64,000 nt of DNA from a virus: IMG/VR virus record IMGVR_UViG_3300045988_179183; one strand, written 5' to 3'. The position numbers and the translations under genes are program-made. The notes beneath the pieces are model-generated. The model ran no database searches. It was not told the DNA's origin and saw only the letters and a program-made list of their open reading frames with translations. Of the stretch, positions 11,657-29,900 are shown one piece after another. How positions within the stretch are numbered: position 1 is the first letter of the stretch; the number at the start of each line of letters is the position of its first letter.

Positions 11657-13650
11657 TTACGTTAGTATCAACACCTCCGTGTTTTCATTCGCGTAAATAG
11701 CCATTTGTTGATTTCTCTCGTCCCAGTTTGTTCGACCGTTCATAAACAGGATCGTATCCTTACAGTTTTTCAAAATATTTTCGAACGATTCATATTCATT
11801 GGACCAGAAAACAACCGTTCGAAACTGGTAATTCTGCTCAAGCGTGATGATGGCGTAATCACCCTTTCGTCCAGTTTTTATTGCGATTTCATACACATAA
11901 CCCCCAGCCGTTAAATTATAACTTTTCGTTTCCAAGGGATCGTCCACTATTTCCGAAAAATCTTTGAAAGGATACTCCGAATCACCAACCATCTCCTTGA
12001 AATAATCCAAGTATAATTTTGAGTAATTGAAAAACGCCAAACCACACAATTTCTTCTGCCTCAAATTATGCCACCACTCTAGTTTCACCTTATCGGGATT
12101 CAACTCAAACACATCTTTTTCCTTATCGATTTTTACCTTATTAACGGTTCTGTATCGTTTTATAAGTTTTATCCTGTCTATAACGTTTGATATTGATTCT
12201 AGCTTATCGAAAGCACCACATGAAATCAAATTTTCTATAACACTTTTATTAACGGCACTTCCTTTCTGTGAATGACGGTCTAAAAATTCATCAAAACCAA
12301 AGTAGGGGCCGTTCTCGGATCTTTCCTTCATGATCTCCGCTTGTGCCTTCTCGCCGACCTGTTTCACTGATGAGATTGACCACACCAAACTTTTATCAGT
12401 GAAATCTGTCTTGATCTTATCCGTCGATTCATTAATATCAGGGGGGGTCACCTTGATATTTCCTATTTCATTTATCTCGTGTAGATAAACGGGGAAATCA
12501 TCATCATCAGCGTAGGAGAACGCAACGGACCAGAAAGCTAACGGATAATTTACTTTTAACCACTGACACGCGTATCCTGTGTTTGCATACGCGACCGCGT
12601 GGGATTTATTGAACTGATAATCAGCCATATTCTCAATTTCCTTCCATGTCTCTTCCGCGTATTTTTGATCAACACCGAAATTCTCGATATAATTTTTCAA
12701 AAATCTTTCCCTGAAGGGTTGAAGTTTCTCCACGTTCTTCTTACCAATCGCACGGCGTGCGCCATCCGCGTCAACAAGATTAAACCCTCCTAACACTTGG
12801 AACATTTTCATTGTCTGCTCCTGCCATATCATGATATACCGGCTACTTTGAAGTATTTCTCCCGCCCCTTTTCTAAATGATACTTCCCTCTCACCCTTTT
12901 TACGAAGGATATACTCGTTATGGAAATTTCCCTCCATAACCCCCGGTCGATATAACCCAATACAGTTTACAAGCTCTGTTATGTTATCGGGCTTTAACAT
13001 CTTACAATATCCGGTTAACCCTTTCGCGCCAAAATGAAATACATCACCATTCCACCCCCTTTGAAAATACGAGTAAACTTTCGGATCATCAAGAGGTAAT
13101 TCATAGAGGTTGATTTCTTCACCAGTATCATCTTTGATTAATTTCAATATATCACCGAACTTACTTAACTGCAAGATTCCCAGAATATCCTCTTTCAAAA
13201 AACCCGCGGTGTCAAGTTCACCACCCTCCCACTCACTGATCAACATATCACCCTGCCGGCGAATCGGATTCCAATGATACATATCCTTTTCATCCGGGTA
13301 AATCATCATGGCACATGCGTGAATCGATTTCGCCTTAGGTTGACCCTGTATCAAGCCGACCATCTCGATGATCTCCGGGTTTCTGTTAATGAAATTCGCG
13401 ACATCTTTTTTCTGACAGGCGATTCTGAATAAATCATCAAAATCCTTCACACCATCTATTTTAGAAGTAAATGAGTTTACCTCTGCGACGGGGACACCTT
13501 TCAACCTACATAGATCCTTGACGGCGGCCTTGACTTGAAGAGTCGTGTAGGTTCCCACGGAGCAAACTTGATCGGCACCGTAACGCTCCTCCATGTATCT
13601 TTTAACTTCCGGTCTTCTCGCCATCTCGAAATCAGTATCGATGTCCCTTA
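11657..13650 (-). CDS. dnaE: DNA polymerase III alpha subunit (DnaE), downstream exon / C-terminal part
   Basis: The ORF-track protein starts at MARRPEVKRYMEERYGADQVCSVGTYTT. The frame is open a further 23 codons upstream with no ATG/GTG/TTG start and encodes ...AARLRDIDTDFE, the Pol III alpha catalytic Asp pair (E. coli PDFDVDF). Downstream motifs: FHFGAKGL, YRPGVMEG, FNKSHAVAYA. The 5' boundary near 13650 is approximate. Confidence 0.85.
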
Positions 13651-14643
13651 GTCTGGCAGCGAACCGTGCTTGATTCGCTGCCGCTTTTCTAATTTAATTG
13701 ATTTAACTATATATTCCATTTCAAATTTTGTTTTATCTGTTTTACAAATCTAGATTTTTCAATAAAAGACATCACCTTTCTCCTTATATCTGTTTCTCTT
13801 AAATACACCTCCGTATATAAAGGAACCCATTTCCTTTCGAATAGCTTGCCTTTCTGAAGAAAAGTAAGTAATGTATCATGATTACCACTCGGTGATAATG
13901 TTTTTTGTGCGTCATAAGCAGATAGAAATTTATGTACCTCTAAAGTATAAATATTTATCATCACAATCGGTTTCGCATTCGGATTAAGACTCCCTTTCGC
14001 AACACCCCGGTCTTTTCGGATTACTGAGATATGATCCTTCATTTCCTGGGACCATTTATTCCCATAATTACCATTTTTCCCACCCACTCGTCTCGGCGGC
14101 TTAATACCGCCAATTTTTAAATTTAGTGTTCGTCGATCTCTCACCCACTGATGATCAACTACACGTTTTTCCTGAATCAATGCATCATCTACGGTATTAA
14201 AATACAACAAATTCACTCTCTTAAACGCACCAACCCCGTACAATCTCACGCAATTACCTAATGGCATTGGTAAAGGGTCCTTGTAATCTTTTAAACCGGT
14301 GGAGTAATCCGTCTTGATTCCGCCACCAATATAAGAATCTTCCACTGTTTTTGATGAATGAACCCCAACATATACTTTTCCGTTTACCATACAGGTTGTT
14401 TTATACAAAATATTATAAAGGTTATTGTCACCCTTAAACGGATTCTTTTGTCCGTTCGAGCATTTTGCTAATATCTCCTGATCCGACACTAACGATTCTA
14501 TCTCCATCTTTTAAATCTTGAGCTTTTACATCTAATTTTTCTCCCGATCTAAAAATACACACTTTATCATCAAAATCCAACTCTATATCTAAATTATTAT
14601 CGAATGTGATTTTTACAACGTCCACTTCAACTTGTTGACCGAT
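13625..14643 (-). mobile_element. Intervening sequence in dnaE, probably a group I intron carrying a GIY-YIG homing endonuclease (boundaries approximate)
   Basis: Separates ...LLFERFLNKGR (codons ending ~14644) from ...RDIDTDFE (13627-13650), which are adjacent motifs in DnaE. Contains a free-standing GIY-YIG ORF. A 9-bp stem ggcagcgaa/ttcgctgcc (13655-13663/13674-13682) lies just 5' of exon 2. Confidence 0.6.
13707..14507 (-). CDS. GIY-YIG homing endonuclease
   Basis: 266 aa. N-terminal NLYNILYKTTCMVNGKVYVGVHSS...YIGGG fits the GIY-(10-11 aa)-YIG module. Basic C-terminal region with repeated GxxNxNxK-like motifs (GGKNGNYGNKW, GSLNPNAKP), typical of the NUMOD-type DNA-binding tails of intron endonucleases. 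Confidence 0.8.
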   Translation of the reverse strand: MEIESLVSDQEILAKCSNGQKNPFKGDNNLYNILYKTTCMVNGKVYVGVHSSKTVEDSYIGGGIKTDYSTGLKDYKDPLPMPLGNCVRLYGVGAFKRVNLLYFNTVDDALIQEKRVVDHQWVRDRRTLNLKIGGIKPPRRVGGKNGNYGNKWSQEMKDHISVIRKDRGVAKGSLNPNAKPIVMINIYTLEVHKFLSAYDAQKTLSPSGNHDTLLTFLQKGKLFERKWVPLYTEVYLRETDIRRKVMSFIEKSRFVKQIKQNLKWNI

Positions 14644-16056
14644 ACGACCTTTATTCAGAAAACGTTCGAATAGCAAATCGTAATCAAACGGGTTAATGTG
14701 CGTCAGACCCAATAAATAGGCGACGAGGGAGCCACAAGCTGATCCACGGCCGAACCCTACGAGTATACCTTGACGTTTACACCATTGGGTGATATCCCAA
14801 AGTATCAAGAAATAATCAACAACATCTCCGTATTTAATTACATCTATCTCAGTTTCAAGTCTATCAAGATACTTCTCTTGTTCATCAACATCACTTATCC
14901 CCATGCTATTAAACCCATCCGCGACCAAGGATATAAGCATATCAACTTTTGATCCATCATATTTCTTGAACTCCTCCTCGGTCATTTTATATTTAGGAAG
15001 ATGACGTTGTGATAGATCGACCTTGAAATTACTACACCTTTCAGCGATATCATTTGTGTTCTCGATCGCGAATCCGATGATATCAAGCATAATATCTTGG
15101 TCATTATCAGAGAATAACTCCCTAATCTCCATCAAATATTCTTCGTTACATTTGAAGTATTGATTTTTTGAAAAATCGTTACTTATACCCGCGGATGAAT
15201 TCAACGCTTTTTTCAGATAGAAATATTCTTGGTCCAAATAATACGCATCACAGATATTTGTGGGCAACATGGAACTTGAGAAATATTCCTGAAGATTCAA
15301 AAGATATACCCTATCTCTTTCATTTGAATCAAACTTAACTGAATCAAGTTGATAGTATGTGTTCATCAATTCTTTCGGCACATCTTTAAATTGCAGGCTC
15401 TTCGGGTCAATCACGATAATTAATCCCTCTCTCAATGACAGAAACTTTCCTTCATCGATCCTCACATTATTATCAACGTTAATTTCCTTGTTGATAGAAA
15501 GAAGGTTCATCCACCCTGTTTCATCCACGACGTAAACCTTCACATCGTACAGAAGATCTTTCTTTTGATTGAACACGGTAACGGTTTCACCGATCACCGG
15601 TTTCAAACCGTGTTTCTGGCATTCCAACTGAAATTTAAGCACACCCGCAAGTGTGTTTTTCTCACAGATACCCAAAATACTCACACCGAAAAAATTCGCT
15701 TTTCGACACCAATCTCCATAATCTCCGGTTCCGTTCAATAATTCAAACGGACCTCTCACTCCCAGAAATGATTCGGTCGGTAAATCACTATCAACCTTAC
15801 CGATATATTTCAAGAGTTTCAACTTCACTTTCGATTCATTACCCTTTCTCAAAGTGTAATACAGACGGCCGAACTTATAGATGTAATTATTCGCAGTGAT
15901 GGGTGTTCCTATGTAATTAAACCCTCGATCAAACAGAAGTCCGTCGACATTGGGCCCTGATAATTCATATGTATCACCATCCATTGTGATAATACCCAGG
16001 TCGGAAATATCATATATAAATCCATTGCGATCGAGATACGATAACAGTTCTTTCAT
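14644..16056 (-). CDS. dnaE: DNA polymerase III alpha subunit (DnaE), upstream exon / N-terminal PHP-domain part
   Basis: ORF 14434..16056. DnaE-like sequence (FLGVRGPFELLNGTG, GICEKNTLAGV, VGFGRGSACGSLVAYLLGLTHINPFDYDLLFERFLN) ends at ~14644. The remaining 69 codons are read-through into the intervening sequence. Confidence 0.85.
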
Positions 16057-16745: not shown

Positions 16746-16776
16746 TAAAGATACACAATGTTTATTTATTTACCAA
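16746..16776 (-). promoter_or_regulatory. Bacteroidota-type promoter, conserved-box class (copy 2)
   Basis: Minus strand reads TTGG-N19-TATCTTTA within AATAAACATTGTGTATCTTTAGAC. It lies 45 nt upstream of the CDS start at 16701. Confidence 0.55.
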
Positions 16777-17569
16777 CGAATCCAGCAAAAAATCGGTACT
16801 TTTCAATATTAAATTTTATGTCATTCCATTGAGATTGTTGTACATCGATACCCACCATCTTATGAAGCATCACGGGAATTTTTTCTTCAAGTCCGCTATC
16901 CGTATATCTTACACCGTGTAAACCATGAATAACTGGATTAGATGTATCGATACTTCTGATAAAGTGATACTTATCCTCGTTATATTGGCAAACTTCTTGC
17001 GGTAATACTGTGCCCAGTAAATGCAACGGCTTTTCACAATCCATAACACCGTGATTGATGAGCTGGTCAATGAACATTTTTCTTCCTCTACAATATGCCT
17101 TCGATGTATTCTCATCAGCCGCGAGACTTAAATAAATGGGTAAGTTGAAAGGTAGCGCAACCATATCACAGCATTCGACCATGCATTTATAGCATTCGAC
17201 AAGTTCATTCCAACTTATCCCCTGAACAACACCGATTGAATAGCTGCACGATATTTTCTCCCACGTTCTCGCCATTCTCATCGTTTCTTTCGCATTTCTC
17301 AAAACATCGGGTAAAACGTAATAAGTTGGCTTCAGTGCCTTAATCCATGAACGAAATCTATTTGCGTCAAATGCCGACCCCAATTCGAACACTGAATTGT
17401 CAAGAATTACCTCGCGTCCCTTGTTAACAAGCGCATCCATGAAAAATTCGAAATAATCGCCACCTATATCGGGATCTTCAAACAAGTGAACAAGTGCGTA
17501 ATCATAATCAGTCATCGATTGAACCTTGTTCATAATCGATAACGGTGCTTCATGCGCTATCTTAATCAT
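16766..17569 (-). CDS. Divergent TGT/DpdA-like TIM-barrel protein (second transglycosylase paralog, tentative)
   Basis: 267 aa. VILDNSVFELG matches TGT DSGGFQ, IGVVQGISWNE matches GGLAxGE, PLHLLGTVLPQE matches hLLGxGxP, and IRSIDTSNPVIHGL matches DmFDcVxPTRxArxG. The same motif order is seen in the adjacent bona fide DpdA (20477..21373). Overlaps the QueC stop by 8 nt. Confidence 0.45.
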   Translation of the reverse strand: MIKIAHEAPLSIMNKVQSMTDYDYALVHLFEDPDIGGDYFEFFMDALVNKGREVILDNSVFELGSAFDANRFRSWIKALKPTYYVLPDVLRNAKETMRMARTWEKISCSYSIGVVQGISWNELVECYKCMVECCDMVALPFNLPIYLSLAADENTSKAYCRGRKMFIDQLINHGVMDCEKPLHLLGTVLPQEVCQYNEDKYHFIRSIDTSNPVIHGLHGVRYTDSGLEEKIPVMLHKMVGIDVQQSQWNDIKFNIEKYRFFAGFVGK

Positions 17570-19292
17570 TGTGTTGATATTTTATGGGATCCGTCATTCC
17601 GTTTAATTCAAACGCTTCGAGCCGCTCGGTACAATTATGCACCAAATATCCCTCACAAATAAATGAACCAGCACTAGTCTTAATATCATATACATGTGCC
17701 TCCTTAACTGGTTCATCTATTTTATTTACCACCACTTGGTCTAAAAGCCTTATTGAATTATATGTGCCTAACTTTTCAAGCATCGACGCACGTTTTCCCG
17801 CACCGTACTTTAATGTAATTATGTACGGTCTTGTTACTCTCCAAGTTTGCATAAGGGTACCGCCCTCTTTAAAACCGGGCGTAACGGATTGCGACCTGTC
17901 ACACTTAATCCCCAACAATGATAATGCTTTATCGATTTGAATACACTTTTCTTTATTCACAATCACTGCTTGGCTTATAGAAAAACCGAATGATCCATTT
18001 GATTTATTATGACAAGCACACCCATCAGCTATCAACATTCCGTTTAAATACCCGCGCAAATACTCAGGGTGTTCATTAAATTTTGTCTTCTCAAGAAACA
18101 CAGGACCATAACCGCCACCAGCACGGTGCATGTTGGTATCCTCCCTGTAAGTGATTTTTACATCACATGGCTTGATATATTTATCATAAAGAGACCAAAA
18201 TTCTTCCAATACATCGAACTCCTTTTGAAATGTATGAACACCCCGTGTGTCAATGGATCCATCACCATCAGCAAATCCACGTAAATAACCCAGGGCGAAT
18301 TTTTCATCATCAACCTCTTTTCTTGTATTTGATACTGGCCAAAATTTCACCATATAAGTAGCATCCTTTCTCTTCATCTCCTCGTACTTTCTATATCTTG
18401 GCCTTAACTTCATATTTGAAGCATACACATAATGATCCTTCGTTAAAAGAAGACCCGCCATATCATATACCGGTTGAATACCATTATCAAACTTATCCAA
18501 TACCTTCGCCACACAAATTTTCTTCGTGTTTTCATCCACGGACCACACTTCGTCTCCAATACAAATATCCTTAATTTGCTTCCATGTATTATCACTCATC
18601 AGTACTTTCTGCGATTCTTCTATACACGACCCACACCTTCCACACGATCTTCCTTCTGGATCGGGATTATAGCACGTGTGAGTGTTACCCAGAACCAAAT
18701 TAATTTCATAATCATTGAACCCGAGGATCGTCATCGCACGTAACCCTTCGGCAAGTACACCGCCCTTATCCATGTGATTGAACGGAGCTTCGTATCCCAC
18801 TCTTTCACTACCCCAATTCGATACTTTAAACGCGTGCTCACAAGCGATTCGAGATTCCTCGGATGTATCAGGATAACAGCAATGATCGCCGCTATGTAGG
18901 CCTAAAAACACATCAACATTACTCTCCGTTTTATTCGCCCATGAAAGTGCCTTCCCATAAATGATAGCGGAAAAGATCACGTTTCTATTTTCAATAACCG
19001 TTGATTTCATATTTTCGGACGCGTAATGACCTTCCGGTATAGGTTCACCACCTACATGAAGGGACGAATTACTGTCACTGAAACAATCCCTCAGATCGAT
19101 AATCTGGTGTGATAACTTAAACCTCTTACCTTGCAAGAACTCAATATTTCTTTTCACCTTCTCCAATTCAACCTGATGCTTCTGACCGTATTGAAAAGAA
19201 TAAGCCTTAACTTCGTAATCATGAGCAAGTAAATACATGAGCAAGCACGTACTATCCAATCCGCCCGATAAACTTAAAATCGCCTTTTTCAT
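17562..19292 (-). CDS. queC: 7-cyano-7-deazaguanine (preQ0) synthase QueC, interrupted by an intein
   Basis: MKKAILSLSGGLDSTCLLMYL (PP-loop SGGxDS), SFQYGQKH. Zinc motif CGRCGS + CTERLEAFELNG is restored after intein removal. The start is more likely ATG at 19292 than the ORF-track start at 19349, being 1 nt after the upstream stop. The exteins sum to ~245 aa. Confidence 0.88.
   Translation of the reverse strand: MKKAILSLSGGLDSTCLLMYLLAHDYEVKAYSFQYGQKHQVELEKVKRNIEFLQGKRFKLSHQIIDLRDCFSDSNSSLHVGGEPIPEGHYASENMKSTVIENRNVIFSAIIYGKALSWANKTESNVDVFLGLHSGDHCCYPDTSEESRIACEHAFKVSNWGSERVGYEAPFNHMDKGGVLAEGLRAMTILGFNDYEINLVLGNTHTCYNPDPEGRSCGRCGSCIEESQKVLMSDNTWKQIKDICIGDEVWSVDENTKKICVAKVLDKFDNGIQPVYDMAGLLLTKDHYVYASNMKLRPRYRKYEEMKRKDATYMVKFWPVSNTRKEVDDEKFALGYLRGFADGDGSIDTRGVHTFQKEFDVLEEFWSLYDKYIKPCDVKITYREDTNMHRAGGGYGPVFLEKTKFNEHPEYLRGYLNGMLIADGCACHNKSNGSFGFSISQAVIVNKEKCIQIDKALSLLGIKCDRSQSVTPGFKEGGTLMQTWRVTRPYIITLKYGAGKRASMLEKLGTYNSIRLLDQVVVNKIDEPVKEAHVYDIKTSAGSFICEGYLVHNCTERLEAFELNGMTDPIKYQHND
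17634..18626 (-). mobile_element. Class-1 intein (331 aa) with LAGLIDADG endonuclease inside the QueC Cys-cluster
   Basis: Starts CIEESQKVLMSDNTWKQIKDICIGDEVWS (Cys1 codon 18626-18624). Block B LLLTKDHYVY. LAGLIDADG blocks LGYLRGFADGDGS and LRGYLNGMLIADGC. Block F HVYDIKTSAGSFI. Ends GYLVHN with +1 Cys (17633-17631). Confidence 0.85.
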
Positions 19293-19293
19293 T

Positions 19294-19878
19294 TTATAAT
19301 CTGTAATTAAATTCCATAATATCCAATACCTGGGAAACTCTTTCGTCAATACTTCCGCTCACATAGTGTATCCCTCGTGGTGCGAAGTCTTGTAACATAC
19401 GCGCGTTTTTCTCAAATAAACGATCGATTTCCTTTTGAAATACTTCATCAGTTGACCGAACTCCGTCGTCCACGATTTTAAACTCCGGCCTCAGTACAAT
19501 GTGATGGCTGTAAAGGGGCTCTATATGAAATAGAAGTTGGGTGACCGTGTCAACCATTTCATCCCAGAGAGGCCTATCCTCGCTCGATGACCTGTCCCGG
19601 TTATACTCCGTGTAGCATAGAACATCTAATAAACATCTATCGGAAATAATATGATCATGCGCTGACATCGCTGACTCGATAATTTCTTTCACATACGAAG
19701 TTGCGATCCAAAGTTGATCATAAATACCCGCTTCCTTATTAATCTTTATGCCGCGATCATTACCTTTCCTTGAAGGAGATCCCATAAAGAGAGATCCCTT
19801 CAAACACTCCTCCTTTTTCAACGCCTCAATTAACGTTGTCTTACCTGTGCATTGAGCACCTGAAATTGATATAATCAT
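19294..19878 (-). CDS. P-loop NTPase / nucleotide-kinase-like protein
   Basis: 194 aa. N-terminal Walker A ISISGAQCTGKTTLIEAL. Its size and layout resemble small (d)NMP kinases or NadR-type kinases. Confidence 0.55.
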   Translation of the reverse strand: MIISISGAQCTGKTTLIEALKKEECLKGSLFMGSPSRKGNDRGIKINKEAGIYDQLWIATSYVKEIIESAMSAHDHIISDRCLLDVLCYTEYNRDRSSSEDRPLWDEMVDTVTQLLFHIEPLYSHHIVLRPEFKIVDDGVRSTDEVFQKEIDRLFEKNARMLQDFAPRGIHYVSGSIDERVSQVLDIMEFNYRL

Positions 19879-19908
19879 TTTTAAACAATTAATTTATTTC
19901 TAACACCA

Positions 19909-19943
19909 TAAAGATACACAAAGTGTATCGAATTATCAACAAA
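19909..19943 (-). promoter_or_regulatory. Bacteroidota-type promoter, conserved-box class (copy 3)
   Basis: Minus strand reads (T)TTG...CACTTTGTGTATCTTTATGGTGTTA. The -7 box TATCTTTA corresponds to plus 19909-19916, 30 nt upstream of the CDS start at 19878. Confidence 0.55.
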
Positions 19944-19966
19944 AACAGAGATTATTTTCTCTGTTT
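19943..19966 (-). terminator. Rho-independent terminator at the end of the dCTP-deaminase-like gene
   Basis: 8-bp stem aaacagag/ctctgttt with an 8-nt loop spanning the stop codon. The minus strand continues TTTTTGTTG. Overlaps the -33 region of the next promoter. Confidence 0.5.
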
Positions 19967-20452
19967 GTCGTTTTGATATTGGCCGTTATATAAATCTTCC
20001 TCGTTTACATCCGTGCAATCATAACAGTAGAACTGGGCCACGCGGGCGTTCTTCTCGATCGTGATTGTGTGAAACACTTCCATGAACGTACCCATCGAAT
20101 CAGTGTGAAAACCCGCGTCGAAAATCGATGAATAAATCCAAGCACCGCACCGGGCAACTGAACTTCGCTGTACTATCCGACCCATTTTGTTTTTGGGTAT
20201 GTTACAACCTTCAATGAAATCAACCATGTAATACCCCGGAGGTAGATGCCAAACTTCGTTTCCATTTATATCAGGAAAACATCGAACTTCTTCGTATGAG
20301 GGTAACATTGTTTTGCCCTCGCGGGGTATGAATCCATGACCTTTCACAACACTTACCTTTCTCAACCGAATATCACATCCGTGCTGGGTTAGATTCTCTT
20401 CTAAATGATTAACGATAACACCTTCTCCGTGTAATTCCTTTCCGTTTAACAT
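19952..20452 (-). CDS. dCTP deaminase/dUTPase-superfamily protein
   Basis: 166 aa. RSSVARCGAWIYSSIFDAGFHTDSMGTFMEVFHT matches the Dcd/dUTPase pattern RSSxaRxG...xDxGfxG... Confidence 0.6.
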   Translation of the reverse strand: MLNGKELHGEGVIVNHLEENLTQHGCDIRLRKVSVVKGHGFIPREGKTMLPSYEEVRCFPDINGNEVWHLPPGYYMVDFIEGCNIPKNKMGRIVQRSSVARCGAWIYSSIFDAGFHTDSMGTFMEVFHTITIEKNARVAQFYCYDCTDVNEEDLYNGQYQNDKQRK

Positions 20453-20476
20453 AATCTCTAATTTATTAAAATTTAA

Positions 20477-21373
20477 CTATTCAATTATTTCATCATTCTG
20501 TTTTTCATACAAGAACTCTCTCGCTCTCGCGTCAGCGAACGCGTACAAAACTATATCTCGACTCAGATAATGATACGGTATCCTGCCAGATAGATCGGGG
20601 CCGGCACTCCCATACGCATCTTGCCCCGGTACGAGGGTTCCCTCTGCCACTTTCTTCAAAAAATTATTACGTGCCTTCTCAATATTGATGGCGTACCTGA
20701 AAATAGAGAAATCGACCGAATCCGGCATGACAAACCGGGTTGTTTCAACGTTTGAACATCCCAGGAGATGAACGTATTTCCCTTTATCGCGAGCGTACTT
20801 CATCATCTTTCCCAGTTCATCCCTGTACACATGCCATTCCCTACCCTGAGCCAGACCTCCTATCGAAAGGATGGGGTAGAGGGGCGAGTCACAGAGATCC
20901 TTCCAGTATTGAAAACCCTGATGCATTTTAAATACCGGTGCGGGATAGTACCCTGTTATTTCCTTGATCTCGTCTCTCAGATAATTTTTAGGTGATAACA
21001 GGTTATCATCTTTTCTAAAATACTCGTTATCAAGTTCAAAACACATTTTAAACGGATACATTTTAAGAAACCGAAGAAACTTTTTCTTCATTTTCTCGCA
21101 TTCATTCCAAAAATCAGGGTTGTTTTCACCCAGTTTCTTCTGTTTTTTGAATAATGTGAAACCACCGGAATCCAACCATATTCGATCGCCTCCAACAACG
21201 GTTTGAATAAATTTAATATACCCGGCGGTCATATCAACGGTTGAAATTAGATAGTCGTTATCATGTGCAAGCAAAAGTTTTTCCAAGACCTTATCGGACC
21301 TACAACTACACACCAGACCACCACCCAATCCCATCACAAGCCTTTTTTTAGGTTTTTCAAACATATCAATCAA
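20477..21373 (-). CDS. dpdA: DpdA-type DNA (7-deazaguanine) transglycosylase, TGT family
   Basis: 298 aa. IWLDSGGFTLF (TGT DSGGFQ motif), ILSIGGLAQGRE, VHLLGCSNVE, DSVDFSIFRY. Embedded in the folE/queD/queE/queC cluster. Confidence 0.75.
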   Translation of the reverse strand: MIDMFEKPKKRLVMGLGGGLVCSCRSDKVLEKLLLAHDNDYLISTVDMTAGYIKFIQTVVGGDRIWLDSGGFTLFKKQKKLGENNPDFWNECEKMKKKFLRFLKMYPFKMCFELDNEYFRKDDNLLSPKNYLRDEIKEITGYYPAPVFKMHQGFQYWKDLCDSPLYPILSIGGLAQGREWHVYRDELGKMMKYARDKGKYVHLLGCSNVETTRFVMPDSVDFSIFRYAINIEKARNNFLKKVAEGTLVPGQDAYGSAGPDLSGRIPYHYLSRDIVLYAFADARAREFLYEKQNDEIIE

Positions 21374-21803
21374 TACCAGCTATTAATTTATCAAGTTCAT
21401 CTTTGTTATCTTGAAGGGTTGTGATACCGATTTCTTTCATCGCATCCTTGTTGCCTGATTTTTCAACAAGACGTTGAAGGCCTGTATAATTCCATGAGGA
21501 ATACTCACCAACTTTATTATCAGCGACCAAAAAACCAACCTTTTCCTCGTCCGTTAAACCACTAACGACTAAAACATCAAACTCTTCAACGCCAAGTAGC
21601 TGTAACGCTTTGAATCTCGTGTTTCCCGCAAGTATCGTTCCTTCTTCATCAACAACAATAGGATTGATATATCCATATTCTTGGATGCTTTTTGCAACAA
21701 TTTTCGCGGATTTCGAATTTTTTCGAGGATTCAATGGGTGGCAGCGTATGTCACCCACGCTCACCCATTTAATTTCCTTCCGTATTTTCTTTATCGCCGA
21801 CAT
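21366..21803 (-). CDS. ParB N-terminal (ParB/Srx) domain protein
   Basis: 145 aa. VSVGDIRCHPLNPRKNS ... VVDEEGTILAGNTRFKAL is the ParB-box pattern (GxxR). Overlaps the DpdA start by 8 nt and begins 3 nt after the FolE stop. Confidence 0.7.
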   Translation of the reverse strand: MSAIKKIRKEIKWVSVGDIRCHPLNPRKNSKSAKIVAKSIQEYGYINPIVVDEEGTILAGNTRFKALQLLGVEEFDVLVVSGLTDEEKVGFLVADNKVGEYSSWNYTGLQRLVEKSGNKDAMKEIGITTLQDNKDELDKLIAGID

Positions 21804-21806
21804 ATT

Positions 21807-22448
21807 TTATTTTCTCCCGAGTTTATAAATCTGTATCGCTCTTAAAAACTCATCTCGGCTATTCATCTCATTTGTTAAAAACGCCCCCGAACAATAGTGG
21901 GTTGTCATCGTACTATTATCTTCCGCGCCCCGCATACTCACGCACATATGTTCCGCCTCAATATAAACTGCGATACCCAGCACTGTGTCGCCGAATATGT
22001 TAACCAAATAATCATGAATCTGACGAGTTAATTGTTCTTGTAATTGAGGCCGTTTGGCGAACCAGTGAACTATTCTGTTTAGTTTCGAAAGACCAATAAC
22101 TTGGCCACTTTCCTTGCTGATATACGCCAAACTACAGAATCCTGTGAACGGAAGTAAATGGTGTGAACACAATGAATTCACCTCGATCCCATGTTCAATT
22201 ACCATACCTGAGTATCCTGAACTTGGGAATACCGCCAATTTCGGAGGTGCAGAATACGCACCTGACGTGATTTCATTGACAAACATTTTCGCAACCCTGT
22301 ACGGTGTTTTTATCATGTTAGGGTCATTCTTCCAATCATACCCCAGGGCCTCCAAGAACTTACCGTACGCCTCGGTGGCCCTTGCCAACATCTCGTTTCT
22401 ATCATCATCGGAAAGAACGACGTTCCCTCCTGCCATTATTTTTTTCAT
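21807..22448 (-). CDS. folE: GTP cyclohydrolase I (FolE)
   Basis: 213 aa. SLCSHHLLPFTG (CxHH zinc site), RPQLQEQLTRQI, EAEHMCVSMRG. All are hallmark GCYH-IA motifs. Confidence 0.9.
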   Translation of the reverse strand: MKKIMAGGNVVLSDDDRNEMLARATEAYGKFLEALGYDWKNDPNMIKTPYRVAKMFVNEITSGAYSAPPKLAVFPSSGYSGMVIEHGIEVNSLCSHHLLPFTGFCSLAYISKESGQVIGLSKLNRIVHWFAKRPQLQEQLTRQIHDYLVNIFGDTVLGIAVYIEAEHMCVSMRGAEDNSTMTTHYCSGAFLTNEMNSRDEFLRAIQIYKLGRK

Positions 22449-22473
22449 ATTTCGTGTTTTATCTCGTTTTTAA

Positions 22474-23238
22474 CTAAGCATCTCTCTTATCTCCGAAGAT
22501 TATTATATGTAAGCGGTCAGAGTAGAAGTAGCCCAAATCTATACATCTCTGTGCCAACCATTTTCTTTTCTCTGCCAGTTTCTCCTCGGTATCCCCCTCC
22601 GGCATCAGATAGACTATTACAGGCCAGAAGGGGTCCAGTTTAGATACCTCCTTCTTAATTTTCCGAACTTGTCTCTCGACTTCCTTTATATCATCCTCCG
22701 AGGACACCACATATTTCAACTGCGAGAATTTCGATTCCATGATCCATGACACTATAGCGGGGATATTCTCCCTCGTTTTCGCGTGTTTCTCCGCGAATTC
22801 GCCCGAACTCGGAATTGAACTCTTCAATTTAGGTGAGATTGATACGACGTCTACGTACGTATCCTCATCCAGTACATCACCTCTCGCGATGGTTCCGTTC
22901 GTTTCCATGCTCACACTCAACTTATGTCTCCGACCTATCTCGATCAACGATCTCAACAATTCGGGATGAAGGGTCGGTTCTCCCCCGGTAATAAGCATGC
23001 ATTTTATCTGAGGGTTCATGATTATGATATCGACGACATCGTTCAATGAATATTTACCCTTTTCCGGGTTCCACGAGCTGTAGGCCGTGTCACATATACT
23101 CCCTTTAAAAGTACATCTCAGGTTACACCCAGATGTTCTTATAAGAATATGGGGGACCCCCACCTTCATACCCTCTCCCTGTATACAGGTGTGCAAATCA
23201 ATAATCGGTTGAATTTCTGAATAATCCATTTTTAACAT
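22474..23238 (-). CDS. queE: 7-carboxy-7-deazaguanine synthase QueE (radical SAM)
   Basis: 254 aa. IQGEGMKVGVPHILIRTSGCNLRCTFKGSICDTAYS, LITGGEPTL. Confidence 0.85.
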   Translation of the reverse strand: MLKMDYSEIQPIIDLHTCIQGEGMKVGVPHILIRTSGCNLRCTFKGSICDTAYSSWNPEKGKYSLNDVVDIIIMNPQIKCMLITGGEPTLHPELLRSLIEIGRRHKLSVSMETNGTIARGDVLDEDTYVDVVSISPKLKSSIPSSGEFAEKHAKTRENIPAIVSWIMESKFSQLKYVVSSEDDIKEVERQVRKIKKEVSKLDPFWPVIVYLMPEGDTEEKLAEKRKWLAQRCIDLGYFYSDRLHIIIFGDKRDA

Positions 23239-23465
23239 AAATAAGCGTTATACAATTCTATAAACTCGGCGAGATCCAGTTCTGAGAATCTCCGTTCTTT
23301 CGCAATCTCTTTAATAAGATCAAGTTGATTTTCATAAAGCTCGTCCGCCATCTCACCATACCCGCTCACCCTTAAATCAATCACAGGCAATGAAAGTTCA
23401 AATGCCAGACTTTCATCAAACCCATAGCGATCAACAAGATCATTTAGTTCCTTTTTCGTTATCAT
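23232..23465 (-). CDS. small acidic hypothetical protein within the deazaguanine operon
   Basis: 77 aa. Overlaps the QueD stop (4 nt) and the QueE start (7 nt), implying co-translation. No motif. Confidence 0.55.
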   Translation of the reverse strand: MITKKELNDLVDRYGFDESLAFELSLPVIDLRVSGYGEMADELYENQLDLIKEIAKERRFSELDLAEFIELYNAYLC

Positions 23466-24037
23466 AACTTCACTTGTAGTTCAACCTTTGGGTTCACGAA
23501 TTTAATCCCTCGAAAAAGTTTATGATAAATCTCAGTTTTTGCCAGTGAAGGGCTAACTTCTATTTCTTCGGGATACATTTCCAAGTATCTATCATAATCA
23601 TTTCGATCCGATTCGGCATAACCAGTATCTGTTTCATGAACTCGCACTGATTGCACAACCACGTTACCCTCACCATTGTTAAATTCTGTTTTTTCCAATA
23701 TCGATTCAAAACAAGCGAAAAACATGGATGAGAGTAATTCAGCGGAGGGATTGCAAGGTAAAATTATCCACCTATCATTCATCGCCTGTATAAAATTTTT
23801 GTAAACCTCGTTATCCTTCGCCCACAATAAATGAGTATGATCGAATAAATCAACGACTTCTTTAAAATTACCAAGAAGACCGAAATCGACGACCATCCCT
23901 GCGTTATCCAAACGATCCGAGGTCAAAAATAACTCAACTTTATAGCTGTGTCCGTGAATTGAATGTGAACATCTGTCCGATGTACAATTTCTCACAATAT
24001 GGCTTCCCTCAAACTTAAACAATTTTCTAATTATCAT
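23462..24037 (-). CDS. queD: 6-carboxy-5,6,7,8-tetrahydropterin synthase QueD (PTPS family)
   Basis: 191 aa. FKFEGSHIV...CSHSIHGHSYKVELFL (PTPS zinc-His motif), VVDFGLL, VRVHETDTGYAE. Confidence 0.85.
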   Translation of the reverse strand: MIIRKLFKFEGSHIVRNCTSDRCSHSIHGHSYKVELFLTSDRLDNAGMVVDFGLLGNFKEVVDLFDHTHLLWAKDNEVYKNFIQAMNDRWIILPCNPSAELLSSMFFACFESILEKTEFNNGEGNVVVQSVRVHETDTGYAESDRNDYDRYLEMYPEEIEVSPSLAKTEIYHKLFRGIKFVNPKVELQVKL

Positions 24038-24064: not shown

Positions 24065-24096
24065 TAAAGATACACAATGTTTATCAGATAAACAAA
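24065..24096 (-). promoter_or_regulatory. Bacteroidota-type promoter, conserved-box class (copy 4), upstream of queD
   Basis: Minus strand reads TTTG-N20-TATCTTTA within GATAAACATTGTGTATCTTTATGGTGTTGA. It lies 28 nt upstream of the queD ATG. Confidence 0.6.
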
Positions 24097-26982: not shown

Positions 26983-29900
26983 TCAATCCAAATCAACAAA
27001 ATCAATCATTGCCTGTACGTTGTTTTCCCTCAAATCTTGTATTGCCATGAACGATGACATACATATATCATCATGTCCACAAACTGATTCAAGAGTCCCT
27101 TTCTTTGAGTTAAACGCGATTGAATTAAATTCACCAAACATCGTATCAACCAACTTTCGTGTGTTTTCATCTCCGTAAGGCACCCTCAAACGTGCACTTT
27201 CAAAAAACGCTGATAGTGAGGGTAGACCTGATTTCAGATCCTTTTTATTCCCTTCAGTTGTGATAAATTCCTCGACATTAACTAATCCCCTCTCTTTCGC
27301 CATACCCGCAAGAATTCTTTGAAATCCATTCGACTCACACACGGATTTGTTCGGTTTATATCTCGCGTTAAATTCAATAAGTTTATTCACTTGAAGATCA
27401 TGGCTCGCACCCTGCTCTCTAAATATATTTATAAGATATATCAATCCGTGTGCATCCATACCCCATACAGTGTATACTGTATAATCGGCACCCACATTAC
27501 CCGATATCGCAAAATCACATCCCACGACAACCCTGACTAACTTTATGGGGTAACTTTCTATATCATTTGCGAAACTGATATGTTCCATCCCACGTATCGA
27601 TCTTTTCAGAAATTCATACGGGAAAATCGTTGACGTGTCCGCGATCGGCACAACTAGATATTCTCGGTTGAAAACTAACGTTCCAAGTGATTTCCGTTCC
27701 TCCGTTAACCTTTTAAACGTAAGACGATCAGGTGCTAACAGTTGACCATTTGGGAAAACCGCCGGGTATTCAAATACCTTGAATCGGCCATCTTTTTTTA
27801 AATCCCCGTAAATATCCGTTGCCGAATACGGTGTGTTGTGTGATATTATCCCATTCGAAATAAACCGATGAGAAATTGGGATTTTGAAATCAACGGTGTA
27901 AGACTCACTCTCAATTATCGATTTTATCGGTGCGAAATGATACTTCAAATTCATATTACTCAAAATAATCTGAACATCAGGATCATTTTGAGGTAAAGAT
28001 AAAATCCATTTTTTTATCGGTCCGTTCATTCTTTTAAAAGAATGAACTTTCGTATAAAAATCCCCCGATCTCATACCGTAAAATTTCATCTTATCATTAC
28101 CCAACGGATATTTTGATCGAATCTTTCTTAATATCACCGATTGAAACGGTATTCCTTTATCAATGCAAGAGGATTCTCTCCTAGTTTCTCGCGGAACCTT
28201 CCCTTTTCCTGAATAAGTGAACCCGATTTTCTCCATGAATAGTTTCACGCTCGAATTTTTGCTTATAACCAAATTGTATCCTGTTCGGTTTGATTTAACT
28301 AATTCGGTTGATTGGCATTTTTTCTTCTCAATACGTGAATCAATCCCCATGTTAAGAAGAAGTATTTGAATCTGCTGGATTAAACGAAAGCTCGTTGAAA
28401 AATAGCTTACATTTATTCCTTTATCTGAACGATGTCCGTGATAGCAGCATCCATCGCCATCAAAACACCCTCGAAGAAACCATATAACATCCTCCTCGGA
28501 CGCACTCATGATTTTATCAGGAATTGTCTTGGTATGCGAATACATCCCTTTTCGATACCCTAAACTCAACCACGTGGAGATTTTCTCCTTGCTATTAAAC
28601 GACATCCCTATGTGATTTTTCTTAGGGTGATACCCCCTCTCATTAATCAGAAAATTTCTTATACCGGGATTCTTTTTTGTTATCGTGACCCTATTTCCAT
28701 AACCACTTAAATCCAACGTACCGTCCGCTATACAAAGCCCGATTTCATAAAGCTCCTCCCCTTCTATACCAAGAGAACGACCCCAAATATTTGACCCCAT
28801 CTTAAACGCGACAAAATCTCCTTCATACAAATCTTTCGCGTTAACCCATTCGAATAAGCCCGTTTCCGAATTACATCTAAGTAAAGGATGAATGAAACTT
28901 GTTTCAATCTCCAATCCGTTTGAAAGGGTTATGATTTTTGTGGGGGTTTTTCCGTTTACGTAATAGTCTGTCGCGTTAACAAATCCCTCACCATCATGAA
29001 TGTTCATATCAAGAGGGAAAAACCCCTTCTCTCTTTCAATATTAACAGGAGATAATTTGCCAATTTCAGTTAAACCGTTTTCGGTAAACACGTACGTATC
29101 TGGTCTCACACAACCGAGTACACATAAATAGCCGAACGGTTCCACGATCGGAGTGATTGACCCGTAAAAAACTTCATGAAGCTTCTCCCTTTGCTCTTGT
29201 GAATACAACGAACTTTCATCAGGCAGGTCGTCGCATACGACGGCACCAACGTGAAGACCTCGAATCATGGAATCTTTCGATCTCAAATGGAGGATTGAAT
29301 CTGTTTCAGTCGTGATTGATGTCGCGGCTAACTTAGCTTTTCCGTTGCGATTCAATTTCTCCCGAAGAATATCATTTTGCTCTATCTCGGAAATAATCAT
29401 CGCGATGTGTTTCTTGCCGAGTGTTTCATTATTCGTAATCATACACGTTTCCTTACGATTCTTATTGTCGATACTATCCCTAAGAAACGTGGTTGGTCGG
29501 TCATAAGAATATAACCTCCATAAAATGAATGCAAAACACCCCTCGTAACTATTATGTACAACGGTCCCATCTTTCAAGAGAAAAAGGTGATCTCCGTCAC
29601 AAGAAAAACCAACATAATCGCCATCACCGATACATTCAACCTTGAGAGAGGTTGATAAATTATCCTGCACCGTGATTTTTGAAGGTATCTTCTTTCTTTC
29701 TATTTTCACAGGAATTTCATCAACATCTCCCGAAATTGTTATCCTGTAATGAGTATAATCATGAAGGATGTTTTCACCCTTTAATGTTTTCACCTTTACA
29801 TCTGCCGTCCGAGTTATAATCGAATTACATCTGAATCCCAATGATTGAGCAAGTCTTTGCGTTTGCTCTATTAAATTCCTGTCCTTAAACCCAATTTCAA

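Follow-up and report, generated by a model that had tools for sequence, protein, structure and literature searches.

How does a phage exchange the guanines of its DNA for a 7-deazaguanine base, and which of its genes take part in the exchange? This question is raised by a gene island at positions 16766-24037 of IMG/VR virus record IMGVR_UViG_3300045988_179183, an uncultured phage of which a stretch of 64,000 nucleotides (the window, positions 1-64000) was analysed. Full replacement of a canonical base is rare and, for 7-deazaguanines, has been shown in three phages only; the activity of DpdA3, to which it is attributed, has yet to be demonstrated. The original prediction, read from the sequence, described a set of genes for the synthesis of 7-cyano-7-deazaguanine (preQ0) next to a DpdA of 298 amino acids (aa) and named a second, 267-aa TGT-like protein and a kinase among the possible tailoring genes. 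The present analysis shows that the region is a complete 7-deazaguanine DNA-modification island at the preQ0 level. It is a DpdA3-type system with three new traits: the preQ0 level itself, the presence of two TGT-fold enzymes, one of which has a ParB-type partner, and an intein in QueC. The full reading, in which DpdA3-type 7-deazaguanine hypermodification of DNA is encoded in two transcription units behind phage promoter-like boxes, is considered probable.

The 267-aa protein is encoded at 16766..17569 on the minus strand. It is 43% identical, at 98% coverage, to the annotated DpdA DNA-guanine transglycosylase of phage immuto_2-6A (YP_010114477) and 37.5% identical to gp056 of phage CP220. 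A tblastn search returned 19 phage records, all from Flavobacterium 'immuto' phages and Campylobacter phages, and the protein matches phrog_19058 (2e-46). No Pfam or NCBIfam model, the TGT models included, matched it, and an hhalign comparison with the DpdA1 of phage 9g gave nothing. The AlphaFold2 model has a predicted local distance difference test score (pLDDT) of 93.4, and Foldseek aligned it with the TGT structure 6rkq (2.7e-6) and the ArcTGT structure 1iq8 (TMq 0.70). In the protein collection the family counts more than 1,798 clusters, and its loci in IMG/VR number at least 563; its alignment has no large gaps and contains 29 invariant columns. D57-N58, D88 and D208-T-S-x-P are invariant across 34 sequences, and N211 is found in at least 90% of them. 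Judged from motif order, D57, D88 and D208 would correspond to the catalytic Asp residues of TGT. It is clear that this protein is DpdA3, the subfamily tied to complete guanine replacement, and not an unassigned tailoring gene. The DpdA3 proteins of immuto and CP220 are among those described by Cui et al. 2023 (PMC10516641). Deoxyguanosine (dG) was undetectable in all three DpdA3 phages tested in that study, and was replaced by dADG, the deoxynucleoside of 7-amido-7-deazaguanine (ADG), in CP220, by dDG in phiST and by fdPreQ1 in immuto_2-6A. In the same study, attempts to have DpdA3 modify plasmids in Escherichia coli did not succeed, and CP220-infected cells were reported to contain free ADG nucleoside (PMC10516641).

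The island consists of ten co-directional open reading frames (ORFs), all on the minus strand, in the order QueD, 77-aa ORF, QueE, FolE, ParB-like, TGT298 (the 298-aa protein), dUTPase-like, kinase, QueC and DpdA3; their coordinates are as first predicted, and the family matches support the FolE/QueD/QueE/QueC/TGT-like block. It is flanked by DnaE, primase-like and helicase genes, and a megablast search with the island as query returned no match among 50,697 phage records. The last three genes are tightly packed. The kinase stop codon (TAA, 19296-19294) lies 1 nt from the QueC start codon (ATG at 19292), exactly as had been noted, and the DpdA3 gene starts within the end of QueC, its ATG overlapping the QueC stop by 8 nt. 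A scan for sigma-70 promoters showed no enrichment (23 found against 25.9 expected), so a phage-specific box was used as the promoter indicator instead. The 13-mer TTGTGTATCTTTA occurs in five exact copies in the window, all intergenic and all on the minus strand (3101, 16746, 19909, 24065 and 34070). With up to two mismatches allowed, 11 matches are found against 2.7 expected, and none of 100 shuffles reaches 11. Around it, an extended consensus TTG-N20-TATCTTTATGGTGTT is seen. This consensus (TTG, about 20 nt, TATCTTTA) resembles the Bacteroidota promoter (-33 TTTG / -7 TAnnTTTG). The two boxes that had been seen within the block are thus recovered, one upstream of QueD (24065..24077) and one upstream of the kinase-QueC-DpdA3 unit (19909..19921). 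A third (16746..16758), just downstream of DpdA3, precedes a 198-aa ORF and DnaE and marks the island boundary. At the end of the dUTPase-like gene there is a terminator-like hairpin (19943..19966, minus strand; a 9-bp stem followed by a T-run), which is a consensus match only. From these elements the island is predicted to form two transcription units, the first running from QueD through the dUTPase-like gene and the second comprising the kinase, QueC and DpdA3.

The genes for making preQ0 are supported by family matches, and the motifs read earlier in the proteins of the island (CSHH, EAEHMC, HGHSYKV, IQGEG..CNLRC..CDT, SGGLDS, CGRCGS|C and DSGGF) were all confirmed in the translated sequences. 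FolE, a GTP cyclohydrolase I of 213 aa (21807..22448, minus strand), matches PF01227 (1.3e-48) and NF006824 (4e-48) and contains CSHH and EAEHMC. The first gene of unit 1 (23462..24037, minus strand) encodes a QueD-like 6-carboxytetrahydropterin synthase in a long form of 191 aa, with the HGH motif (in HGHSYKV) and matches to PF01242 (3.5e-22) and phrog_2389 (9.8e-21); its score against TIGR03367 (1.3e-18, 67 bits) is under the 89-bit cut-off. It is unlikely to be a DpdL-type decarboxylase, because it is the sole PTPS-fold gene present and occupies the QueD position. Its best cultured 'phage' match is a 198-aa PTPS protein, 49.5% identical, of 'Acinetobacter phage MD-2021a' (L134, CAKLQF020000009.1). 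This record was rejected as phage context, as it is a bacterial chromosome contig with rpsA, lpxK and type II secretion genes. QueE, a radical-SAM 7-carboxy-7-deazaguanine synthase of 254 aa (22474..23238, minus strand), matches the QueE-like phrog_2076 (1.1e-44) and Radical_SAM (5.4e-11) and has the cluster motif CNLRCx6C; several NCBIfam QueE models match at about 1e-18, every one under its cut-off. Between QueD and QueE lies the 77-aa ORF (23232..23465, minus strand), which has no match in Pfam, NCBIfam or PHROGs and homologs only within the clade of the window. Together with QueC, homology indicates that these enzymes would convert GTP to preQ0.

QueC, the 7-cyano-7-deazaguanine synthase (17562..19292, minus strand), is encoded as a precursor of 576 aa, from which a mature protein of 245 aa is predicted after splicing. 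QueC proteins are characterized by an SGGxDS PP-loop and a C-x8/9-CxxCxxC zinc motif (PMC13329287). The window protein matches PF06508 (4.6e-36) and has the PP-loop SGGLDS, and its zinc motif, C-x9-CGRCGS|C, is complete once the intein is removed. Against TIGR00364 it scores 114 bits with a cut-off of 150 bits, because of the inserted intein. This intein, overlooked in the original prediction as was the ParB-like gene (21366-21803), comprises 331 aa (17634..18626, minus strand) and is located between CGRCGS and the last zinc-ligand Cys. It starts with CIEES and ends with LVHN, followed by Cys+1, and TKDH forms block B. The order of its motifs is CIEES..TKDH..LGYLRGFADGDG..LNGMLIADG..LVHN|C, with two LAGLIDADG motifs, and the Pfam matches are LAGLIDADG_3 (3.3e-06) and Intein_splicing (5.2e-05). 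The intein is shared by the QueC of five related loci (L006, L007, L008, L011 and L013) and absent from six others (L009, L010, L012, L014, L015 and L016), in which QueC is uninterrupted and 245-264 aa long. The intein-free QueC proteins of L009 and L016 align across the splice junction, and in the intein-free relatives L009, L010, L012, L014 and L015 DpdA3 is 94-97% identical to that of the window. The insert has the features of a class 1 LAGLIDADG intein, and intein-free alleles are also found. QueC activity, or the assembly of its zinc site, should depend on splicing, because the intein interrupts the zinc motif before its last Cys. It is a curiosity of the island that a DNA-modification pathway would depend on protein splicing in this way.

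Which base is made depends on what else is encoded. It had been stated that no QueF, amidotransferase or formyltransferase is recognizable in the window, and hidden Markov models (HMMs) built from DpdA3-linked homologs likewise found none of them. The same models found no QueF, DpdN, MazG-like gene, phosphoribosyltransferase (PRTase) or Ntn-amidotransferase in the 64-kb window, and the island contains no DpdL-type second QueD paralogue. A Pfam search of the ORFs of at least 120 aa below 34.1 kb, and of the terminase, detected only replication, recombination and packaging genes outside the island; for the ORFs from 34.1 to 64 kb, the search was limited to the HMMs from DpdA3-linked families. 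Since QueF, DpdN, a DpdL-type second QueD paralogue and an amidotransferase are all absent, preQ0 is expected to be the base that is made, with ADG as its substitute if QueC releases that compound. By analogy with the characterized phages, the expected product in DNA would be dPreQ0, possibly with dADG as the alternative. Replacement of dG would be expected to be near-complete, because all three tested DpdA3 phages are fully replaced. The modified base would protect the phage DNA from restriction.

The second TGT-fold protein, TGT298 (20477..21373, minus strand; 298 aa with DSGGF), is a DpdA-like candidate DNA transglycosylase. It had been assigned to the TGT/DpdA family, and this assignment holds in part: phrog_887 (1.6e-10), Foldseek and an hhalign comparison with 9g DpdA1 support it, while there is no match in Pfam or NCBIfam at E <= 0.01 and no described subfamily to which the protein belongs. 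A search of the family profile against PDB sequences gave chance matches only and no TGT or DpdA chain, and the profile recovered only its own closed family of about 200 clusters, without a Pfam domain and without Pfam-annotated relatives. The AlphaFold2 model (pLDDT 91.6) has bacterial TGTs as its top Foldseek matches in the PDB (E about 2e-4, TM about 0.5), and in BFVD it matches several phage proteins that bear the name queuine tRNA-ribosyltransferase (best E 1.2e-7). With 9g DpdA1, hhalign aligned 134 collinear columns (E 0.0025). D68-S-G-G, D115 and D221 are invariant in 33 homologs, and the order of these three Asp matches that of the three Asp that are invariant in TGT and DpdA (PMC10164549). 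TGT298 is therefore placed in the TGT/DpdA superfamily by remote methods only and is outside every described DpdA subfamily. A close paralogy of TGT298 and DpdA3 was rejected, as hhalign of the two families aligns only a shared HLLGC strand. DpdA3 proteins are acidic (median pI 5.35) and TGT298 proteins mildly basic (median pI 8.0). The sole cultured relative of TGT298 is found in Campylobacter phage CC_R7 (47% identity).

The gene upstream of TGT298 (21366..21803, minus strand) encodes a small ParB/Srx-fold protein of 145 aa, consisting of a ParB N-domain, with matches to PF02195 (ParB_N, 4.3e-08) and phrog_620 (1.3e-33). NPR and GxTRxKA (GxxRxxA) are invariant in 28 distinct homologs. In 18 of 27 diverse IMG/VR loci a ParB homolog adjoins the TGT298 gene or lies at most 1 kb upstream of it; of the nine loci that lack one, eight are copies of a second paralogue and the ninth is cut short at that end. 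Phage CC_R7 also has this pair of genes. TGT298 and ParB co-occur with DpdA3, QueC, QueD and QueE in lineages with no more than 43-55% identity to the protein of the window, and never with QueF. This recurrence in divergent lineages indicates that the two-TGT design is a recurrent QueF-less variant. In bacteria, DpdA cannot insert preQ0 without the ParB-fold ATPase DpdB (PMC10164549). Because of this requirement, ParB and TGT298 are read as a DpdA/DpdB-like module that would act on DNA, with a ParB partner that is not a DpdB ortholog. Two further observations concern the distribution of TGT298. In L121-L128, the contigs (146-164 kb) of L112, L114, L116 and L117, a second TGT298 paralogue is located about 15 kb from the first, with neither ParB nor a 7-deazaguanine gene nearby, and these genomes therefore contain three TGT-fold genes. 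In L098 and L099, TGT298 is 85% identical and the gene order is different; a DpdN-like formyltransferase match is present and no QueF was found within 10 kb.

Between these modules lie two genes of nucleotide metabolism. The first gene of unit 2 (19294..19878, minus strand) encodes a P-loop nucleotide kinase of 194 aa that matches PF13521 (AAA_28, 4.5e-13) and phrog_2107 (9.9e-28). Its family is labelled dTMP kinase in PHROG and GenBank, but a bona fide dTMP kinase was rejected, with a TIGR00041 score of 17.7 bits against an 83-bit cut-off and an E of 0.056 for the best match among PDB thymidylate kinases; only the AAA_28 match passes. The last gene of unit 1 (19952..20452, minus strand) encodes a DCD-family, dUTPase-like dNTP pyrophosphatase of 166 aa with a match to PF22769 (1.6e-13). 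It had been labelled dCTP-deaminase-like, an identity that was rejected here (TIGR02274, 39.8 bits against a 92.8-bit cut-off). The archaeal-type dUTPase model NF002598 (3.7e-27, 94.9 bits against a cut-off of 130) and the best PDB match, 9w59, a 'probable dUTPase' (9e-15), score better. By its profile scores, the protein appears closer to archaeal-type dUTPases than to dCTP deaminases. Its best match in a cultured phage is located inside the 7-deazaguanine cluster of Chryseobacterium phage MA9V-3.

The surroundings of DpdA3 were compared in 74 diverse loci, chosen outside the near-identical clade of the window. FolE and the DpdN formyltransferase are each present at 63 of these, QueF at 59, the kinase at 54 (37 of the 43 loci with full flanks), QueE at 51, QueD at 43, a MazG-like (PRA-PH) gene at 38, QueC at 35, a PRTase at 33 and a DCD-like gene at 20. 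Linkage of DpdA3 to FolE, QueD and QueE, as in the co-directional block of the window, recurs in 51 to 62 of 73 other diverse loci, according to the gene. The kinase usually lies within about 1.2 kb of DpdA3, an association that is kept through several different gene orders, and it adjoins DpdA3 in immuto_2-6A, CP220 and CC_R7. MazG-like and DCD-like genes are mutually exclusive and jointly cover 58 of the 74 loci. L061 and L063 have a DCD-like gene that overlaps the stop codon of DpdA3, and in P0148 (L005, 1150-2376) a classical trimeric dUTPase (PF00692, N-terminal) is fused to DpdA3 (aa 149-407), with QueF, formyltransferase, AAA_28 kinase, QueC and DnaE as neighbors. In CP220, an HD-domain gene stands directly upstream of DpdA3, followed by the kinase, in a row; its product may represent a fourth fold in the pyrophosphatase position beside DpdA3. 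In phage 9g, whose DpdA1 is described as having been shown to act post-replication, neither a kinase nor an NTPase adjoins DpdA1. This comparison shows that DpdA3 systems include the kinase as well as a dNTP pyrophosphatase whose type can be exchanged. In the island, both the kinase and the dUTPase-like protein are such conserved companions of DpdA3, and probably not the tailoring enzymes that had been suggested in the case of the kinase. Side observations were made on both families. In ten DCD-type islands (L017, L019-L021, L024, L025, L027, L061, L063 and L079) a conserved protein of about 212 aa, starting with MC[SG]IFG, is encoded near QueC. Pfam gave no match, but it looks like an Ntn class-II glutamine amidotransferase and may be a marker of archaeosine-type (dG+) DpdA3 systems. 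In the Streptomyces phage Karimac (L086, 6204-7615), a homolog of the kinase directly follows a 264-aa 'methyltransferase', near MazG-like and DnaE-like genes; the Streptomyces-phage kinase may serve another module, for the modification of nucleotides or of DNA.

These data suggest the following route. FolE, QueD, QueE and QueC would make preQ0 from GTP, with the zinc site of QueC formed only after splicing, and the two TGT-fold enzymes would insert this base into DNA. The DpdA3 gene is coupled in translation to those of QueC and a dedicated kinase, and DpdA3 would replace most or all of the dG together with the dUTPase-like pyrophosphatase. In the preferred and most economical form of this route, the dUTPase-like enzyme would first hydrolyze dGTP to dGMP, DpdA3 would then swap guanine for preQ0 on the mononucleotide, the kinase would re-phosphorylate the exchanged nucleotide, and the phage DnaE, encoded next door, would incorporate the product. 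ParB and TGT298 would add a post-replicative layer on DNA, here and in the other QueF-less lineages, similar to bacterial DpdA with DpdB. A step at the nucleotide level is suggested because of the gene context, and the acidity of the DpdA3 family, set against the basic TGT298, counts in its favor. In addition, the inactivity of DpdA3 on plasmids in E. coli and the free ADG nucleoside in CP220 infection fit such a scheme, and pre-replicative action of DpdA3 would explain 100% replacement. That some nucleotide-pool step exists is given close to an even chance. The exact chemistry, with dGTP hydrolyzed to dGMP, exchange by DpdA3 on the mononucleotide and re-phosphorylation by the kinase, is put forward tentatively. 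More generally, DpdA3 systems, that of the window included, could well be pre-replicative, although somewhat short of probably so, and would then consist of a pyrophosphatase (dUTPase-like here; MazG-like, HD-domain or fused elsewhere), DpdA3 and a kinase.

The main rival explanation is a purely post-replicative one, which is rated about as likely as the pre-replicative reading, without reaching an even chance. Both TGT-fold proteins would be DNA transglycosylases, perhaps differing in sequence context or efficiency, and the kinase and the dUTPase-like protein would have housekeeping roles, namely dTMP/dNMP phosphorylation and dUTP removal, and merely share the replication module. The TGT fold and the three invariant Asp of both proteins agree with this, as does the fact that every characterized TGT/DpdA works on a polynucleotide (PMC10164549). 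The PDB entry most similar to the DCD-like protein bears the name of a probable dUTPase, and the kinase family is also found in Streptomyces phages, with no DpdA3 nearby in the record examined, both of which would suit housekeeping roles. However, several features of DpdA3 loci are left unexplained by it: the dUTPase-DpdA3 fusion, the mutual exclusion of MazG-like and DCD-like genes, the HD-domain gene beside DpdA3 in CP220, and the 1-nt and 8-nt coupling of kinase, QueC and DpdA3. Furthermore, the exchange of 100% of guanines on DNA of packaged length is kinetically demanding, and E. coli plasmids were not modified by DpdA3.

Several points weigh against the nucleotide-level route and, more widely, against the DpdA3-type reading of the island. 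We know of no TGT-superfamily enzyme that uses a mononucleotide. Ordinary roles in nucleotide metabolism, within a replication module, could account for the kinase and the dUTPase-like gene. The kinase has homologs in 89 Streptomyces phage records, so that exclusivity of the family to DpdA3 phages was ruled out, and in Karimac, the one such record examined, there is no DpdA3 within 7 kb of the kinase homolog. Many of the 74 loci are from related marine and freshwater phages, and the locus counts are therefore not independent. The PRTase and MazG-like genes, usual in most DpdA3 islands, were not found in the window. HMMER-level searches give no link between TGT298 and TGT. Both the product and the level of replacement are argued by analogy, and the genome is probably larger than 64 kb, so a QueF or another tailoring gene could be encoded outside the window. 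Finally, the published view is that DpdA3 acts post-replication (PMC10516641). Searches of the literature brought up neither a pre-replicative 7-deazaguanine route nor later work on DpdA3.

Another possibility, closer to the original prediction, is that TGT298 is the sole DpdA and inserts preQ0 partially and post-replicatively, as in phage CAjan, with the 267-aa protein, the kinase and the 77-aa ORF tailoring the base. The DSGGF motif, the weak phrog_887 match and the complete preQ0 pathway are in line with it. It is nevertheless improbable, as the 267-aa protein is an orthologue-level DpdA3, which is the candidate inserter in the phages with 100% replacement (PMC10516641) and not a tailoring enzyme, and the 298-aa family is missing from most DpdA3 islands. 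Least probable is an auxiliary metabolic island that feeds queuosine or archaeosine of host or phage tRNA instead of DNA: FolE, QueD, QueE and QueC do form the pathway to the precursor of tRNA queuosine, and tRNA is the classical substrate of TGT-fold proteins, but a tRNA scan of the window found no tRNA genes, tRNA TGT models match neither TGT-like protein, the DpdA3 homologs are from phages with chemically proven DNA modification (PMC10516641), and the island is embedded among DnaE, primase-like and helicase genes.

Outside the island, inteins were also observed in other genes of the window. The RecA ORF (6356-8356, minus strand; 666 aa) contains one, with Hint_2 and LAGLIDADG_3 between the N-terminal part and the RecA core. 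The terminase large subunit (26983-30996, minus strand; 1337 aa) appears to hold two, one of the Hom_end_hint/Hom_end type at about aa 121-480 and one of the LAGLIDADG_3/Intein_splicing type at about aa 683-1054. DnaE (PolIII alpha; 11657-16056, minus strand) is split into an N part with PHP and the start of the NTPase domain (14434-16056) and the rest (11657-13624), and no split-intein halves are evident in the C piece. A 266-aa ORF between the two pieces (13707-14507) has a GIY..YVG-like motif and no Pfam match. The ORFs of at least 150 aa in the window are all encoded on the minus strand, apart from two, each of which overlaps a longer ORF of that strand, and the GC skew of the plus strand is negative across the whole window (-0.05 to -0.29). 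As for the host, the closest relatives of several island genes among cultured phages come from phages of Flavobacterium and Chryseobacterium, and several related contigs have Human Microbiome Project (HMP)-style sample numbers. Taken together with the promoter-like consensus, these observations are only a lead to a Bacteroidota host, possibly human-associated.

The island fills the QueC-only, QueF-less, preQ0-level place in the DpdA3 series, and its second TGT-fold enzyme with a ParB-type partner mirrors the bacterial DpdA/DpdB. The comparison of about 120 related loci provides a concrete, testable alternative to the post-replicative model; if true, DpdA3 would be the first TGT-superfamily enzyme acting on a mononucleotide. 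DNA modified in this way would resist many restriction enzymes and would also affect the sequencing and recovery of these abundant uncultured phages.

Pre-replicative base replacement is known from other phages. T4 uses the dCTPase gp56, the dCMP hydroxymethylase gp42 and the dNMP kinase gp1, and the Z-genome of S-2L depends on DatZ, MazZ and PurZ. The logic proposed here is alike: a hydrolase for the canonical dNTP, remodelling of the base at the monophosphate, a dedicated kinase and a polymerase of the phage's own. The base-converting enzymes are not homologous, and for DpdA3 the action on a nucleotide is hypothetical. Closer in gene content are the DpdA1 phages 9g and CAjan, which also have a FolE, QueD, QueE and QueC-type pathway next to replication genes, and the DpdA1 of 9g aligns collinearly with TGT298. 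These phages differ in that replacement is partial, with 25-32% of the guanines present as dG+ or dPreQ0, and 9g has a single transglycosylase with no kinase or NTP pyrophosphatase beside it.

The bacterial DpdA/DpdB system, studied in Salmonella Montevideo (Gedara et al. 2023, PMC10164549), likewise combines a TGT-fold enzyme with three invariant Asp and a partner of the ParB superfamily, the NTP-binding DpdB, and preQ0 is the inserted base. In contrast to DpdB, the partner in the window is 145 aa long, consists of the ParB N-domain only, has GxxRxxA and not DGQQR, and lacks the C-terminal helical domain. TGT298 has no HMMER-level similarity to bacterial DpdA, which modifies less than 0.1% of the guanines, and the window has no DpdC-K genes.

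Among the cultured phages, the Firehammerviruses CP220 and CC_R7 share part of the design. CP220, in which dADG replaces 100% of dG, has the HD-domain gene, DpdA3 and the kinase in a row; its synthesis is said to stop at 7-carboxy-7-deazaguanine (CDG), without a canonical QueC (PMC10516641). CC_R7 is the only cultured phage with ParB and TGT298 and also has a row of genes for QueC, a DpdA3-like protein, the kinase and the polymerase, but its ParB-TGT298 pair is located about 75 kb from the DpdA3-like gene. Both differ from the window in GC content and host, and the Campylobacter phage genes are scattered over the genome. Phage immuto_2-6A (Cui et al. 2023, PMC10516641) has, like the window, FolE, QueD, QueE and QueC in its cluster, a homologous AAA_28 'thymidylate kinase' near DpdA3, and a DpdA3 that is 43% identical over the full length. 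Its cluster additionally contains QueF, the DpdN formyltransferase, a PRTase and a 174-aa 'hydrolase' directly upstream of DpdA3, all four of which are absent from the window, whereas the window adds the ParB-TGT298 pair, the DCD-type dUTPase-like gene and the QueC intein.

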